From: Gammaproteobacteria bacterium
GTDB taxonomy: Bacteria; Pseudomonadota; Gammaproteobacteria; Ga0077536
Assembly (NCBI GenBank): GCA_963662545.2
Contig: CAXXLL010000003.1
Location: 2,784,001-2,848,000 of the forward strand
DNA: 64,000 nt
Reading direction: 5' to 3'
Positions within the stretch are counted from its first letter, which is position 1, and every line of letters starts with the position of its first letter. The notes below the pieces were generated by a model, which was not told the origin of the DNA, searched no databases, and was given only the letters and a program-made list of their open reading frames with translations. Shown piece by piece: positions 1 to 6,163 of this stretch. The translations under genes were made by a program, and so were the position numbers.

Positions 1-898
1 CGCCATCGGTTAGTAAGGTGCCTTTAAAGTCCACCAACGTTTTGTCGATGTGCGACCGCGCCTTGGTTCGCGCAAACGTGAACGCAATCTCATCCGCTTC
101 GCCATAAATTGGCCAATACCACGCCGCGTTCATCTTGCCCTTGCCCGAGCGACCCGCCTTAATCGGCGTTTCATCCATCGCCAGCGTCTTCGATAACAAG
201 ATATGCCGCAACTGCGCCAGATAAATCGGCTTCAACAGGTCACTTGCCTTCTGCACCCAGTGCGTCAGACTCGACCGCGCCACGGTAATGCCGTTCAGCC
301 CCATTCGTTGATGTTGACGGTACAGCGGCAGGTGATAAGCGAACTTATCAACCAGCATCCCCGCAACCACACTCACATCCGCCAATGAGCCGGACCACAG
401 ACCATCGGGCGCCGGGATCGTGAAGATCTGACCGTCGCTTTTGCGCTTCACTACCGGTTGGATGTACTTCAAGACCACATAGGCCGCCGGCCGTTGCGCT
501 AAACGATAGGTGATCTTTTCACTGCTCGCTTCAAACGCATCCGCGACATCTTCAGGTACCGACAATTGGATGCATTCAATCGGCACCGAGTCATCGAAAC
601 GTAACCCTTGATCAGTCACACAATCATCGCCACGGCGCTTTCCTTTGCGCCGCTGATAAGTGATCGTTTCTTTCTCAACCGCCGCCGTCGATGACGACTC
701 ATCCTCGAAGCCATTGAGTAACCGTTGATCGGGATTGGGATCAATCAGCCGCCGTTCAGACTTGCGACCGAACAGTTGGCGTTTGAACCAGTCGAGTTGT
801 TGGGTGAGTGTGGCGACCTGCGTTTTGAGGGCTGTGTTTTCCGCTTGTAACACCGCCGCATCAAGTGATATTTCCGGCGTTGCATAACCCCCATTCAT
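1..898 (-). CDS. tnpC: IS66 transposase TnpC (3' part outside window)
   Basis: Manual translation MNGGY...QQLDWFKRQLFGRKSERR...HLPLYRQ...DETP, paralogous to ORF 2537-4072. Confidence 0.9.
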   Translation of the reverse strand, partial: MNGGYATPEISLDAAVLQAENTALKTQVATLTQQLDWFKRQLFGRKSERRLIDPNPDQRLLNGFEDESSSTAAVEKETITYQRRKGKRRGDDCVTDQGLRFDDSVPIECIQLSVPEDVADAFEASSEKITYRLAQRPAAYVVLKYIQPVVKRKSDGQIFTIPAPDGLWSGSLADVSVVAGMLVDKFAYHLPLYRQHQRMGLNGITVARSSLTHWVQKASDLLKPIYLAQLRHILLSKTLAMDETPIKAGRSGKGKMNAAWYWPIYGEADEIAFTFARTKARSHIDKTLVDFKGTLLTDG

Positions 899-916
899 GG
901 GTACGTATTGTACCGT

Positions 917-1285
917 TTACACTGCTGACCGTCGATCGTTTTCCGGTAATCGAAACCGTTTTAATCGACGCACTGAGCGTAGATCGATCCCTTCAATAAT
1001 GCACTGCCATTCGCTGCGTTGCAGCCGCTGTTTGACCTCGCTATTCCACCGAACCTGGAACTGACCGCGTTCGAGTTTCTTACTCCACAGACAATATCCG
1101 TCCGACTCAAAGTACAGCGCTTTTAATAACGTACGCCGGCGATTGACGAAAACGTACAGTGCCCCATCGAGGGGCTCCTCGTGTAACGCCTGCCGCACCA
1201 ACGCCGATAAACCATGGAACGATTGACGCATATCAGTCGGTGCCCGACATAACCATATACGCAAACCCGATGGGGGCGACCACAT
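917..1285 (-). CDS. tnpB: IS66 accessory protein TnpB (Orf2)
   Basis: PTDMRQSFHGL, LYVFVNRRR, WSKKLERGQF motifs. Confidence 0.92.
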   Translation of the reverse strand: MWSPPSGLRIWLCRAPTDMRQSFHGLSALVRQALHEEPLDGALYVFVNRRRTLLKALYFESDGYCLWSKKLERGQFQVRWNSEVKQRLQRSEWQCIIEGIDLRSVRRLKRFRLPENDRRSAV

Positions 1286-1575
1286 CAGTGCCGTGACACA
1301 CGTAGCACGATGTCATCACCGAGCGCTAACTCGATATCCCATTGTGCATTGGTTAATGGTTGTAACGGGGCCAACTCGACGAAACGTGTTTCCGCCTTCC
1401 CTATCTGAGCGTCCCTCGCTGACCTCGACTTCCTTTTACTGAACGTCGAATATCCAATTCCTCGCTCAGCACAGAATGCGCGGATCGATGAACCGCTTTG
1501 TGCCTGCTCCGCTAATAGGCCACGCCACTCATCCGCACTACGTCGTTTGTTCCGAGGTTTTCCGTGATCATTCAT
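1285..1575 (-). CDS. tnpA: IS66 TnpA (Orf1)
   Basis: W..L...Q..SG.SIRAFC...GI HTH-like segment; position upstream of tnpB. Confidence 0.88.
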   Translation of the reverse strand: MNDHGKPRNKRRSADEWRGLLAEQAQSGSSIRAFCAERGIGYSTFSKRKSRSARDAQIGKAETRFVELAPLQPLTNAQWDIELALGDDIVLRVSRH

Positions 1576-1661
1576 TTACCAAGCTCCCGATTGACTGGGA
1601 AACCTGGCAAACTAAACCATCTGCCCGAGACCGTGAATAACGGCCTGGATTGACCGGTTAC

Positions 1662-1888
1662 TCTCAGACGGCTACGACATGATTCAGTATTCCGTTTATG
1701 GGCGCCTTTTGAACGGTAAAGACGCGCAAGCCAAACATTTTAAACGCTTGATAAATCACTTACCGCCCGAGGGATCGATTCGATGTCTTACGATAACCGA
1801 GAAGCAATTTGCGAGCATGAAGCTGCTTGTGGGTATGCCGCTTTTTCAGGAAAAAGCCGTCACATCCGAGCAAATGCTGCTTTTTTAG
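1662..1888 (+). pseudogene. cas2: Type II-C Cas2, 3' fragment (5' part separated by IS66)
   Basis: [14 protein letters not shown]...[20 protein letters not shown]...QMLLF closely resembles Neisseria-type Cas2; the N-terminal catalytic FDLP segment is absent; lies next to the array. Confidence 0.92.
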
Positions 1889-1948
1889 TGGTTTTAAAGA
1901 AATCGCAACCCCGCCGGCCTATGCCTAGCGGGGCTTCTCGGCAAGTCT
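1889..1948. promoter_or_regulatory. CRISPR leader-like segment with GC hairpin (possible terminator for minus-strand crRNA transcripts)
   Basis: 60 bp between cas2 stop and repeat 1; CCCCGC (1909-1914) pairs with GCGGGG (1928-1933). Confidence 0.5.
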
Positions 1949-2529
1949 ATTGTAGCAATCCGGGGTGAGAGAGGGAGCTACAACAGAGCTGGACGCCAGC
2001 CCCATTCGTTGATGTTGACGGTACAGCGGCAGGTGATAAGCGAACTTATCAACCAGCATCCCCGCAACCACACTCACATCCGCCATTGACAGCGTGAGAT
2101 TGTAGCAATCCGGGGTGAGAGAGGGAGCTACAACCTGTATGAATGCGTGGCGATTGTCCAGACGATTGTAGCAATCCGGGGTGAGAGAGGGAGCTACAAC
2201 TTAGGCTCCTTTTCGGACACGACCTCGATCATTGTAGCAATCCGGGGTGAGAGAGGGAGCTACAACCGCTAATGCTCTGTGCCGCAATCCAAAATAATTG
2301 TAGCAATCCGGGGTGAGAGAGGGAGCTACAACCCATTGTCACGACACAATGAAGCGGCTACAGACAAGATTGTAGCAATCCGGGGTGAGAGAGGGAGCTA
2401 CAACACCTACGCCGTCTGCGCCTGTCGGACCTGTATTGTAGCAATCCGGGGTGAGAGAGGGAGCTACAACCCGGGCTAAGTCAGTGAAAACACCATCAAC
2501 ATTGTAGCAATCCGGGGTGAGAGAGGGAG
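1949..2529 (-). CRISPR. Type II-C CRISPR array: 7 full repeats, 1 truncated repeat, 7 spacers
   Basis: Identical 36-bp repeat ATTGTAGCAATCCGGGGTGAGAGAGGGAGCTACAAC at 1949, 2099, 2165, 2231, 2297, 2369, 2435; cut copy at 2501. Spacers are 114, 30, 30, 30, 36, 30, 30 bp. Reverse complement GTTGTAGCTCCCT...TGCTACAAT resembles the Neisseria II-C repeat. Confidence 0.97.
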
Positions 2530-2536
2530 TAACCGG

Positions 2537-4072
2537 TTAAACGGCGACGTCTTGAATTCGTTTCTGCGGTGTGTTGGTCACGGCCAAATCAGACCGTAGC
2601 GGGTTATCACTGAACATCGATTTCCATACCCGCGGCGTCAACTGCTCCACCGCACTATCCGGATGGATCGCGATCCGTTGCAGCACATCGACCAGGTAGG
2701 TATACGGGTTGATACCGTGCAAGCGACACGTGCAGAGCAAACTCTGGATGATCCCAACATGCTCGGCACCCACCTCCGTCCAGCAAAACAACCACGCCTT
2801 GCGCCCCATCGGGATAGGCCGAAGTGCACGCTCTAAGTGATTGGTATCAATGGCGACACTCGGATCTGATAGATAAATCCGCAATGCGCCCTCACGCTCA
2901 CTCGCATAACCGACAGCTTTAGTAAACGGTTGGCTGGGTAATAAGTCCAGCCGCTGGCGTTGCCCATGCAACCAAGCAAAGAACGCATCCACCGCCGGCA
3001 AAGCATGTAAACCGCGAGTCGCCTGCGTCGCCACTGCCTCCATTTGTTGCTTGCGGATAGTGGCCTCAACCGTATACAGCTGACCTATCAGTTCAAGCGC
3101 GGCATGGGCGCCTGGTGGGTCATCTGACAACGCCCGTTCGAATTGGCGTCTTGTATGGGCCCAGCATTGCGCGTGCACCACATCCTCGTGTTCAATCGCA
3201 TAGCGGGTATAAGCCGCCGCACCATCCGTTAACAGCGTGCCCTTAAAGTCCAACAAGGTCTTCTCGATATGCGTGCGCGCTTTACTCGGCGCAAAGGTAA
3301 ATGCGATTTCATCCGCCTCGCCATAGATCGGCCAATACCAGGCCGTTCTCATCTTGCCTTTACCTGCGCGGCCCGCCTTGACCGGCGTCTCGTCCATCGC
3401 CAGCGTCTTCGATTGCAAGATATGCCGTAACAGCGCCAGATAAATCGGTTGCAGTAAGCCGCTCGCTTTCTTCACCCATTGCGTCAAGCTAGCACGCGAT
3501 ACCGTAATGCCATTCATCGCCAGTCGCTGATGTTGGCGATACAACGGTAAGTGATAGGCGAATTTGTCGACCAGCATCCCAGCGACCACACTCACATCCA
3601 CCATGCTGCCGGGCCACAGACCTTCCGGCGCCGCAAGGGTAACGATTTGACCATCGCGCTTGCGCTTCACCACCGGCCGGATGTACTTCAATACCACATA
3701 CGCCCCCGGCCGTTGCGCTAACCGATAGGTCACCTTCTCGCTAATCGATTCAAAGTCACCCGCCAGGTCTGCCGGTACCGATAAGCGGATGGTTTGGATC
3801 GGCACCGAGTCATCAAACCGCAAGCCTTGCTCGGTCACACAATCCGCATCACGACGCTTACCTTTGCGCCGTTGATACGTAATGGTTTCTTTCTCAACTT
3901 GCGCTGCCTCAGGCCGCGCTACGTTAAAGCCATCCAGTTGCGGTTGGTCCGGATTGGGCTCGATTAAACGCCGTTCAGACTTGCGGCCGAACAGTTGGCG
4001 TTTGAACCAGTCGAGTTGATGGGTGAGTTGTGCGACTTGCGATTTAAGGGCGGTGATTTCTGCTTGTAACAT
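2537..4072 (-). CDS. tnpC: IS66 transposase TnpC
   Basis: HLPLYRQ, DETP, CWAHTRR, DTNHLERALRP, GRKAWLF motifs. Confidence 0.95.
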   Translation of the reverse strand: MLQAEITALKSQVAQLTHQLDWFKRQLFGRKSERRLIEPNPDQPQLDGFNVARPEAAQVEKETITYQRRKGKRRDADCVTEQGLRFDDSVPIQTIRLSVPADLAGDFESISEKVTYRLAQRPGAYVVLKYIRPVVKRKRDGQIVTLAAPEGLWPGSMVDVSVVAGMLVDKFAYHLPLYRQHQRLAMNGITVSRASLTQWVKKASGLLQPIYLALLRHILQSKTLAMDETPVKAGRAGKGKMRTAWYWPIYGEADEIAFTFAPSKARTHIEKTLLDFKGTLLTDGAAAYTRYAIEHEDVVHAQCWAHTRRQFERALSDDPPGAHAALELIGQLYTVEATIRKQQMEAVATQATRGLHALPAVDAFFAWLHGQRQRLDLLPSQPFTKAVGYASEREGALRIYLSDPSVAIDTNHLERALRPIPMGRKAWLFCWTEVGAEHVGIIQSLLCTCRLHGINPYTYLVDVLQRIAIHPDSAVEQLTPRVWKSMFSDNPLRSDLAVTNTPQKRIQDVAV

Positions 4073-4124
4073 CGTCGCATCGAGGGGAGTGCAGTGTGAC
4101 GCAGCCCTCTTTCATGAGCGTGAA

Positions 4125-4502
4125 TTATAACGTTTGCACGCTTGAACGTCGATCGTTTTCAGGTAAATTAAAACGCCTTAATCGACGCACTGAACGTAAG
4201 TCGATGCCTTCAATAATGCATTGCCATTCGCTACGTTGGAGCCGCTGTTTGACGTCGCTGTCCCAACGTACTTGGAACTGACCGCGCTCTAATCGTTTAC
4301 TCCAGATACAATAACCATCTACTTCAAAGTACAACGCCTTCAGCAATGTCCGTCGGCGATTCACAAAAACGTACAACGCACCGTCGAGCGGGTCTTCGTT
4401 TAAGCCTTGGCGGACCAAAGCCGACAAGCCGTGAAAAGATTTACGCATGTCGGTCGGCGACCGGCACAACCAAATGCGCAAACCGCAAGGCGCTGACCAC
4501 AT
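4125..4502 (-). CDS. tnpB: IS66 TnpB
   Basis: PTDMRKSFHGL; paralog of 917-1285; start placed at MWSAP. Confidence 0.92.
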   Translation of the reverse strand: MWSAPCGLRIWLCRSPTDMRKSFHGLSALVRQGLNEDPLDGALYVFVNRRRTLLKALYFEVDGYCIWSKRLERGQFQVRWDSDVKQRLQRSEWQCIIEGIDLRSVRRLRRFNLPENDRRSSVQTL

Positions 4503-4792
4503 CAGCGACGCGCCAACCGCAACACAATATCGGGGCCCAGGGTGACCTCGACATCCCAACCATCATTTGACGATGACCGTGGCGGTGATAACTCAATGAA
4601 GGGGATTGTTTGTGACGCGGTTTGCTCCGCCCCGGATAATGCCGACTTCCAGCGCGCAAAGGTTGAATAACCGATGCCGCGTTGCGCGCAAAAAGCTTTG
4701 ACCGAGAGCCCACTTTGGGCTTGCTCTGCGAACAATGCTCGCCACGCGGCGGGTGTACGGCGCTTCCAGCGGGATTTGCGTTGTGGTGTCAT
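4502..4792 (-). CDS. tnpA: IS66 TnpA
   Basis: Paralog of 1285-1575. Confidence 0.88.
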   Translation of the reverse strand: MTPQRKSRWKRRTPAAWRALFAEQAQSGLSVKAFCAQRGIGYSTFARWKSALSGAEQTASQTIPFIELSPPRSSSNDGWDVEVTLGPDIVLRLARR

Positions 4793-4878
4793 GTGCCAGG
4801 CTCCTAACGGGACGGAAAACCTGGCAAACTAACTCACTGCCATTTAAATCGGAATGACGGTCTGGTTTAACCGCTTAC

Positions 4879-6163
4879 GTTCCTACGACCGGGTCGCCGC
4901 GTTCGCACGAGCTTGGCGGGCGCAGCAGCAAGAAGCAGTAAAAGCGAGCCGCGCCGCGTTTGTCCCGCTGGTGTTTGCACCAGGAGAAGCGTTTCAATTC
5001 GACTGGAGTGACGACTGCACGGATGCAGGAGGTAGAGCAATGCAGGAGCAATTGCCGAAGATTGGGCAGTGATCGGTGGCGAGCGCCGTAAGCTGATGGT
5101 CGCGCATTTCAAGCTGTCTTATAGCCGTGCGTTCATCCTCAGGGCCTACCCGTTGCAGACCCACGAGATGCTCTTCGACGCCCACAACCACGGGTTAGCG
5201 GTGCTCGGCGGTGTGCCGCAGCGCGGCATTTACGACAACATGAAGACGGCGGTGGATCGTGTCGGCCGAGGCAAAGCCCGAGCGGTCAACGCGCGTTTCC
5301 AAGCAATGGCCAGTCACTTCTTATTCGAGGCCACATTTTGTAACCCCGCCGCCGGCTGGGAGAAGGGCCAGGTCGAGAAAGGGGTGAGAGACTCACGGTC
5401 GCGACTGTGGCACGACGCGCCGAAGTTTGCCGACCTGGACGAACTCAACACCTGGTTGAGTGCGCGTTGTCAGACTCTATGGCACGAAGTCCGCCATCCG
5501 GAGCAGCCGACACAGACCATCGCTGAGGTCTGGGCGGATGAACGACCGGCGCTGATGCGGATGCCACCACCGTTTGATGGATTCATCGAACACACCAAAC
5601 GCGTCTCGCCAACGTGTTTGATCGCGTTCGAACGTAATCGTTACAGCGTACCCGCGGCTTTCGCGAACCATGCTGTGAGCTTACGGGTTTACGCGGACCG
5701 CCTCGTCGTTGCCGCCGAAGGTCATCCAGTCGTTGAACATCCTCGATTGTTTGCGCAAGGCCATGACCGTGTGGCGCAAGTGTTATACGACTGGCGTCAT
5801 TATCTGGCGGTGCTACAACGCAAACCGGGTGCATTGCGCAACGGTGCACCATTTGCGGAACTGCCAGCAGCCTTCAAACGCCTCCAGTCAATGCTGCTCA
5901 AACGTCCTGGAGGAGACCGCGAGATGGTCGACATCCTGGCGTTGGTGTTACACCACGACGAACAGACCGTGTTGTGTGCGGTAGAACTCGCGCTTGAAAC
6001 CGGCGCACCATCGAAGCAGCACGTTATAAATATTCTAAACCGGTTGCTCGCAGCAACCGCGCCGGCGCCTATCGACACGCCGGCTGGATTAAGTTTGACT
6101 GCAGAGCCGCAAGCCAATGTCGATCGCTACGATCACTTACGGGAGCGCATGCATGCCAGCTGA
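4879..6163 (+). pseudogene. istA: IS21 transposase IstA, 5'-truncated and frameshifted by a 47-bp insert
   Basis: FQFDWS and [16 protein letters not shown] lie in different frames; compared with the intact paralog at 17360-18883. Confidence 0.9.
5012..5058. repeat. 47-bp insertion within istA
   Basis: CGACTGCACGGATGCAGGAGGTAGAGCAATGCAGGAGCAATTGCCGA interrupts the D-W-S-E-D-W codons seen in the paralog. Confidence 0.8.

Follow-up and report, generated by a model that had tools for sequence, protein, structure and literature searches.

The leader-proximal spacer of a decaying type II-C CRISPR array is 114 nt long and contains 89 nt that are identical to an internal part of tnpC in an IS66-family element resident in the same genome, with short unrelated stretches on either side. 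We regard this patch as most likely a one-off accident of repair or replication and not as a new kind of immune memory. The mechanism that we favour, with roughly even confidence, is a Cas-independent, microhomology-guided templated insertion, by a double template switch, into a normal spacer. The analysis concerns a window of 64,000 nucleotides (C3:2784001-2848000) from a host genome of 5.58 Mb, which is assembled in 3 contigs and is 96.85% complete.

The CRISPR locus and the IS66 elements that interrupt it

The locus begins upstream of the window and extends into it, in the order tracrRNA-like anti-repeat and terminator (minus strand), cas9, cas1, a cas2 split by an IS66 element, and the array. 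Cas9 is a 1128-aa ORF with Pfam matches to RuvC_III, HNH_4 and Cas9_RuvC, that is, to both the RuvC and the HNH nuclease. On the minus strand, at a distance of 24 nt upstream from cas9, there is a partial match to the repeat, followed by a hairpin and a T-run; judged by its sequence, this is a predicted tracrRNA with its anti-repeat beside cas9, as is characteristic of type II-C. The cas1 gene is intact, and the genome holds one cas1 and one cas2 in total. By ORFs and Pfam matches, the interval from cas1 to the array contains IS66 genes only, besides the split cas2. The features of this part of the window are as follows.

1..1661, tnpA, tnpB and tnpC on the minus strand: IS66-family element #1 (Pfam DDE_Tnp_IS66, TnpB_IS66 and LZ_Tnp_IS66; copies and ends by BLAST)
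1662..1669, no strand assigned: target-site duplication of IS66 #1, 8 bp, TCTCAGAC; its counterpart adjoins the left end of the element and is not within the window
1670..1888, plus strand: cas2 3' remnant, 72 codons and a stop, Pfam CRISPR_Cas2 profile positions 27-74
1889..1948, minus strand: inferred leader, 60 nt from the cas2 stop to repeat 1, on the downstream side with respect to crRNA transcription
1949..2529, minus strand: type II-C CRISPR array, seven full 36-nt repeats and an eighth truncated at its 29th base
2333..2368, minus strand: spacer 5, 36 nt, the second length outlier
2529..4878, minus strand: IS66-family element #2, ~76% identical to #1, 2 genome copies, truncating repeat 8

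IS66 #1, the element that splits cas2, has a total length of 2355 bp and begins 693 bp before the window does. The 5' piece of that gene, upstream of the element, covers CRISPR_Cas2 profile positions 1-24, which places the split at about position 25. The ends of the element read GTAACCGG... and ...CCGGTTAC, and the target sequence flanks it on both sides; with the gene order tnpA-tnpB-tnpC, the DDE_Tnp_IS66 domain, the 8-bp duplication and terminal inverted repeats, it has the hallmarks of the IS66 family. Since the single cas2 is split, adaptation should be dead. BLAST against the 5.58-Mb genome returned 13 copies of IS66 #1 at 99.96-100% identity, one of which is interrupted. The interrupted copy (C2:1057759-1061508) has its first 220 bp ~1.4 kb away from its other 2143 bp and was presumably split by another insertion.

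At the other end of the array, the right flank of IS66 #2 (4878-4900) shows neither an 8-bp target duplication nor a continuation of the array, and continues into a gene that encodes a Mu-transposase C-terminal domain; an IS-associated rearrangement probably removed the distal array. Transposition of IS elements into cas genes is a known pattern of CRISPR-Cas inactivation, as set out in the available part of PMC10359306. The insertion of IS66 #1 in cas2, with its 8-bp duplication, and the cutting of the array by IS66 #2 both follow this pattern, whereas the fragment in the spacer does not: it is internal tnpC sequence with no IS ends and no duplication, and is not a product of transposition. 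The CRISPR locus is an ordinary type II-C system in decay, dismantled by IS66 elements. Upstream of the tracrRNA and cas9 (L017 2928-6690) lie a tyrosine integrase, a DUF772 transposase and an IS240-type DDE transposase, so that the CRISPR locus as a whole may be part of a mobile island.

The array is the only one in the 5.58-Mb genome. Its repeats start at 1949, 2099, 2165, 2231, 2297, 2369, 2435 and 2501, the last being truncated and the seven full copies perfect, and its spacers measure, in order, 114, 30, 30, 30, 36, 30 and 30 nt. Because the anti-repeat and terminator are on the minus strand, the crRNAs are read on that strand, so that repeat 1, adjoining cas2, is the last repeat transcribed. 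We take the end of the repeat on the minus strand, TGCTACAAT, which resembles an extended -10 box, to be a candidate promoter inside the repeat. The leader and the end with the newest spacers were placed by the polarity of type II-C arrays, as described in the available parts of PMC12080349 and PMC12477760 (the latter for the Neisseria meningitidis model). From the orientation of the tracrRNA and this polarity it follows that the 114-nt spacer is the newest, leader-proximal one, in agreement with the initial annotation, which had placed the newest spacers at the cas2-proximal end.

The length of this spacer was compared with those in 57 public loci with an identical 36-nt repeat (40 metagenome and 17 genome loci). 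All 478 of their spacers measure 29-32 nt, and 464 of the 478 are exactly 30 nt; none exceeds 32 nt and none is shorter than 29 nt. By this yardstick both the 114-nt spacer 1 and the 36-nt spacer 5 are length outliers. The exact repeat recurs unchanged throughout these loci (L020-L076), which include MAGs labelled Burkholderiales, Betaproteobacteria, Halothiobacillus, Azonexus and others as well as many metagenomes, making the II-C repeat of this array unusually widespread across lineages.

Anatomy of spacer 1

The features of the spacer and of its counterpart in IS66 #1 are given below.

1985..2098, minus strand: leader-proximal spacer 1, 114 nt
1985..1996, no strand assigned: left non-IS flank, 12 nt, or 14 nt if CA at 1997-1998 is ancestral
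1997..2085, plus strand: IS66-identical patch, 89 nt, exactly equal to IS66 #1 296-384 on the same strand
2086..2098, no strand assigned: right non-IS flank, 13 nt, or 18 nt if CGCCA at 2081-2085 is ancestral
296..384, plus strand: tnpC donor-type stretch equal to the patch, 1701 bp upstream of it in direct orientation

The donor-type stretch corresponds, by arithmetic from the ORF coordinates, to about residues 172-201 of the 527-aa TnpC. Beyond the exact patch the match runs on to 93 nt (1997-2089 versus 296-388) with one mismatch, T2086 in the spacer against A385 in the element. An exact match of 89 nt cannot, on the sequence evidence, be due to chance. The corresponding stretch of IS66 #2 (3515-3607) is just 78% identical to the patch, and both flanks proved unrelated to IS66 #1 and #2 on either side when the sequences were compared. 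Sharp borders, 89/89 identity and unrelated flanks fit copying and not divergence. A mutated repeat hidden inside a long spacer was considered and excluded, since the core of the spacer is IS66 sequence. Spacer 1 also has neither the ruler-set length (29-32 nt) nor the single contiguous source of a canonical Cas1-Cas2 spacer. The initial annotation had thus described the spacer correctly (114 bp, an 89-bp exact piece, flanks of 12 and 13 nt, CGCCA at both junctions), and it was also right that the patch clearly differs from IS66 #2.

The pentamer CGCCA is present at 1994-1998 and at 2081-2085. We estimate the chance of finding it at both junctions as ~6 registers x 4^-5 = 0.006. At the right junction the resemblance goes further, with 8/9 bases matching between 2081-2089 and IS66 380-388; as words, CGCCATTGA in the spacer and CGCCAATGA in IS66 are identical at 8/9 bases under either way of parsing the spacer. 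The homology between recipient and donor, as it can be inferred from the product, would consist of these matches, CGCCA on both sides and 8/9 bases on the right.

Two parses are compatible with the junctions, and the copied part amounts to 84-89 nt depending on how many junction bases the spacer already had. In parse A, 1985-1998 and 2086-2098 were once contiguous, giving an ancestor of 27 nt (14+13) into which 87 nt were copied, with CA as the homology at the left junction and CGCCA at the right one. In parse B, 1985-1996 was contiguous with 2081-2098, giving an ancestor of 30 nt (12+18), which is the canonical length, and a copied segment of 84 nt; the homology is then CGCCA on the right only, and the left CGCCA is a coincidence. 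A 27-nt ancestor is about as unlikely as a chance CGCCA, given that 0/478 spacers in the identical-repeat loci are shorter than 29 nt. The proposal in the initial annotation that removing the piece leaves a 27-bp spacer therefore holds as one possible parse (14+13) but not as the sole one, the 12+18 arrangement of 30 nt being available too.

A full IS66 element that once sat in spacer 1, followed by two deletions that left 89 nt of its interior, is a further possible history. The locus does draw IS66-family elements, with one in cas2 and one in repeat 8. Such a history, however, needs three events, and its deletions must end a few bases beyond the IS termini and yet spare 12 and 13 nt of spacer. 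The spacer retains neither an IS end nor an 8-bp duplication, and recombination between two direct copies 2 kb apart, with loss of the cas2 remnant, the leader and repeat 1, would have been the easier outcome. We consider it highly improbable.

The spacer was also sought in four public runs, examined as assembled contigs. These represent other strains; the best run shares at most 0.46 of the sampled words. The junction of IS66 with cas2 is identical in contigs of runs X18 and X20, and the junction of repeat 8 with IS66 #2 is covered in X18, X20 and X1. The contigs listed for the four runs nowhere cover 1985-1996 or 2090-2098 and nowhere join across the patch, which is uninformative either way. 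Depth arithmetic likewise places no X20 or X1 contig over 1985-1996 or 2090-2098, and X18 has no junction contig that reaches into the patch. This silence carries no information because the strains are others, with different spacers, and because short links of low depth between repeats are lost when contigs are built. Contig depth in X18 over 1668-2520 is ~20 on the cas2 remnant, ~10.6 on spacer 7 and ~5.3 on spacer 2, with none on spacers 3-4, and the sample may hold a mixture of array variants.

Run X18 also contains an 86-nt contig in which spacer 5 is six bases shorter near its 3' end and carries one substitution. Spacer 5 may have been altered after acquisition, or two strains may hold different captures of one site. 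The short spacer 5 occurs in a run that also has the shared IS66::cas2 junction, which suggests that spacers in this lineage change after the loss of Cas2.

No independent molecule supports either junction of the patch, and the sequence rests on one assembly, so an artefact of assembly, polishing or library preparation, with a true spacer of ~30 nt, has to be weighed. The genome in 3 contigs nevertheless resolves 13 identical IS copies of 2.36 kb, which implies long reads, and a long-read consensus would need the insert to be present in most reads. An artefact would also have to make two precise switches and come back to the same base of the same spacer. On balance we think that an artefact is improbable.

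Neither the same spacer nor an insert-free form was present in either of 2 other genomes of the genus, and both junction strings had 0 matches in metagenome and genome contigs. The 57 identical-repeat loci, with their 478 spacers, have no spacer in common with this array. The search for this spacer or a ~30-bp version of it in related genomes, an idea of the initial annotation, returned neither, in a very thin sampling of close relatives.

The flanks have no meaningful match elsewhere in the genome that would make them self-targeting, the left 12-mer having one other exact copy, as expected by chance. A protospacer joining both halves was not found in the viral, genome, phage and plasmid searches that were run. 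Searched as a whole, the array had no match in the phage collection, and in the plasmid collection it matched only repeats and IS66 relatives at ~72-78% identity. The 18-mer at 2081-2098 had 0 matches in 80 other genomes of the order and one viral match, where ~1 is expected by chance; the bases upstream of that match differ from the left flank, and it was set aside.

The 14-mer at 1985-1998 occurs at at least 118 viral loci. Among the matches listed, the best continuation agrees with 10/13 bases of the right flank with no gap, or 24/27 overall, and falls in a small gene that neighbours the major head gene in a group of phages with ~97% identity to Klebsiella phages (L175 6912-6938; relatives L197-L204). 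No other look-alike of the two joined flanks turned up. Had this been the source of the spacer, it would favour parse A. We rejected it as a probable chance match, with an estimated family-wise chance of ~0.1: the same three or more mismatches are kept in 9/9 relatives examined, the other spacers of the array match none of five phage records, and the phage protein is absent from 81/81 genomes of the order of the host.

Origin of the patch

All 13 copies of IS66 #1 equal the patch at 89/89 positions, and all 13 carry A where the spacer has T2086. The insert is thus identical to a donor elsewhere in the genome, as a templated insertion requires, and the copies are equally good donors. The initial annotation had singled out the element that disrupts cas2 as the specific donor, which 13 copies identical over the patch do not support. 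That copy is the nearest of the 13, lying in cis at 1701 bp and in direct orientation, and we consider it the most likely donor. If it was the donor, the event postdates the loss of Cas2. The anatomy of the spacer, the number of IS66 copies, the fact that the fragment is unique and the orientation are all shown directly by the analysis, whereas the donor, the order of events and the template-switch mechanism set out below are inferred.

Spacer 1 would first have been acquired normally, as a short foreign-derived spacer, and the halves of the original would persist as 1985-1996/1998 and 2081/2086-2098. Later, 84-89 nt from the tnpC of a resident IS66 would have been copied into its middle. A 3' end made during replication or repair of the spacer would leave its template, re-anneal at the IS66 word that matches the spacer at 8/9 bases, be extended on IS66 for ~85 nt and then rejoin the array by 0-2 nt of homology. 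Such a switch would not require Cas1-Cas2. GC skew suggests that the plus strand is leading at the locus, and it may be, though this is speculative, that a lagging-strand 3' end in the spacer slips to IS66 on the same template and returns. The position and orientation of the nearest donor support this mechanism, as do the sharp borders of the patch, the homology at its junctions and flanks that resemble an ordinary foreign spacer and sum to 27 or 30 nt. The decay of the locus, with adaptation gone, and acquisition errors that are known to span a few nt only (see below) also speak for it.

The closest known processes are replication template switches, such as the slipped-strand and quasipalindrome switches of E. 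coli, and microhomology-mediated templated insertions, such as those of synthesis-dependent microhomology end joining. Our case shares with template-switch and microhomology insertions an exact nearby copy, sharp borders, short homology at the junctions and independence from a dedicated enzyme. It differs from them in the 84-89-nt size of the patch, in a donor 1.7 kb off and in having a CRISPR spacer as recipient, and here the mechanism is read from the product.

Neither Ku nor a reverse transcriptase (RVT_1) was found in the genome, which is 96.85% complete, and hence blunt-joining and cDNA routes look unavailable; Ku-type end joining and insertion by a reverse transcriptase are disfavoured on these grounds. 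We also discarded a cut by Cas9 in its own array, since it would fall 3 nt from the repeat-adjacent end, and the patch sits 12-14 nt in.

The searches described above, which returned no insert-free allele, no protospacer joining the halves and no contig over either junction, count against the templated insertion that we favour, and so do three further observations. The return switch would have used just 0-2 nt of homology. Taking CGCCA as true microhomology implies the 27-nt ancestor, for which there is no parallel among the 478 related spacers; under parse B this objection disappears. Finally, a sensitive BLAST of the element against the 5.58-Mb genome found no other orphan fragment of IS66 #1 at high identity, which makes the one in the leader-proximal spacer the sole such fragment. 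If the process took no account of CRISPR, the odds of this are 1/7 within the array and far lower genome-wide. Its location speaks for a cause peculiar to the array or to adaptation. Such a cause may have supplied the initiating break, through integration nicks at the leader-proximal repeat or fork stalling in the array, or may even have produced the chimera itself.

This observation bears most directly on the possibility that the chimera is linked to adaptation and arose at or during Cas1-Cas2 integration, either through the integration of a prespacer that was looped or chimeric (phage DNA carrying an IS66 insert) or through the repair, on an IS66 template, of an integration nick or break at the leader-proximal repeat. 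The abnormal spacer is exactly where type II-C systems add spacers, it holds the only orphan IS66 fragment in the genome, and its flanks sum to 27 and not 30 nt, which could mean that the substrate was distorted when the ruler was applied to it. None of the 478 same-repeat spacers, however, is longer than 32 nt, and the IS66 part is central and not at a spacer end. Both flanking repeats are perfect, with no partial duplication of a repeat, and cas2 is broken, the integrase being already gone if the copy in cas2 was the donor. Known acquisition errors amount to a few nt, the variant lengths seen at high throughput in type I-F resulting from slipped cuts, as far as the available part of PMC5059440 describes them. 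In the titles and abstract openings of papers on long or chimeric spacers and on template switching in arrays, we found neither a published case of this kind nor any internal IS fragment inside a spacer.

Compared with canonical II-C acquisition (the Neisseria meningitidis model, in the part of PMC12477760 available), spacer 1 is alike in lying beside the leader-adjacent repeat between perfect repeats and unlike in its 114 nt versus ~30, in its two sources of content and in the broken cas2. On this evidence we hold a link to adaptation to be unlikely, though it is the foremost of the alternatives. That the patch was actually made in adaptation appears slightly less likely again; in this reading, transposon DNA would have been joined to a phage-derived prespacer by a II-C integrase with a failing or already damaged Cas2 ruler, or in the repair of its integration intermediate at the leader-proximal repeat.

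The initial annotation had offered two biological routes, an aberrant acquisition of transposon DNA and a Cas-independent, microhomology-mediated capture into an existing spacer. It is the second that we prefer, as an even bet, and the first that we place lower, as unlikely. Its further claim, that either route would record a direct encounter between IS and CRISPR, is not supported: a templated patch from replication or repair tells no more than that a repeat present in many copies served as a convenient template.

Consequences for the guide and meaning of the patch

Because the crRNAs are read on the minus strand, the non-IS bases 1985-1996 stand at the repeat-adjacent, seed end of the guide. 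The guide of spacer 1 would be dead. At its 5' end the crRNA would be considerably longer than usual, and just 12-14 of the 24 repeat-adjacent nt would still match the original target. With 24 repeat-adjacent nt that have no IS66 match at the seed end, IS66 is not targeted, and self-targeting of the element by spacer 1 is, to judge from its sequence, unlikely. Doubts about self-targeting had already been raised in the initial annotation, with the same argument from the 12 repeat-adjacent non-IS bases, and they stand. Spacer 1 has in common with the self-targeting spacers in the available part of PMC6990116 that host sequence occurs in a spacer next to damaged cas genes; it differs in that the host part is an insert, away from the repeat-adjacent end, and that IS66 would not be cut.

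The patch is one unverified event in a locus that is degenerating, and alone it opens no long-standing question. It does call for caution in the mining of spacer targets, where a pipeline would score spacer 1 as targeting IS66 or self. If real, it would be a clean case, from nature, of a bacterial templated insertion of great length in which the donor, the recipient and the homology at the junction can all be seen, and internal patching would be a little-noticed form of spacer death, beside deletion and point mutation. The position at the leader end leaves a possible link to adaptation, which would be more interesting. A patch made in adaptation would be a natural record of a chimeric spacer, and would hint that CRISPR integration sites are hotspots for the templated capture of mobile elements.
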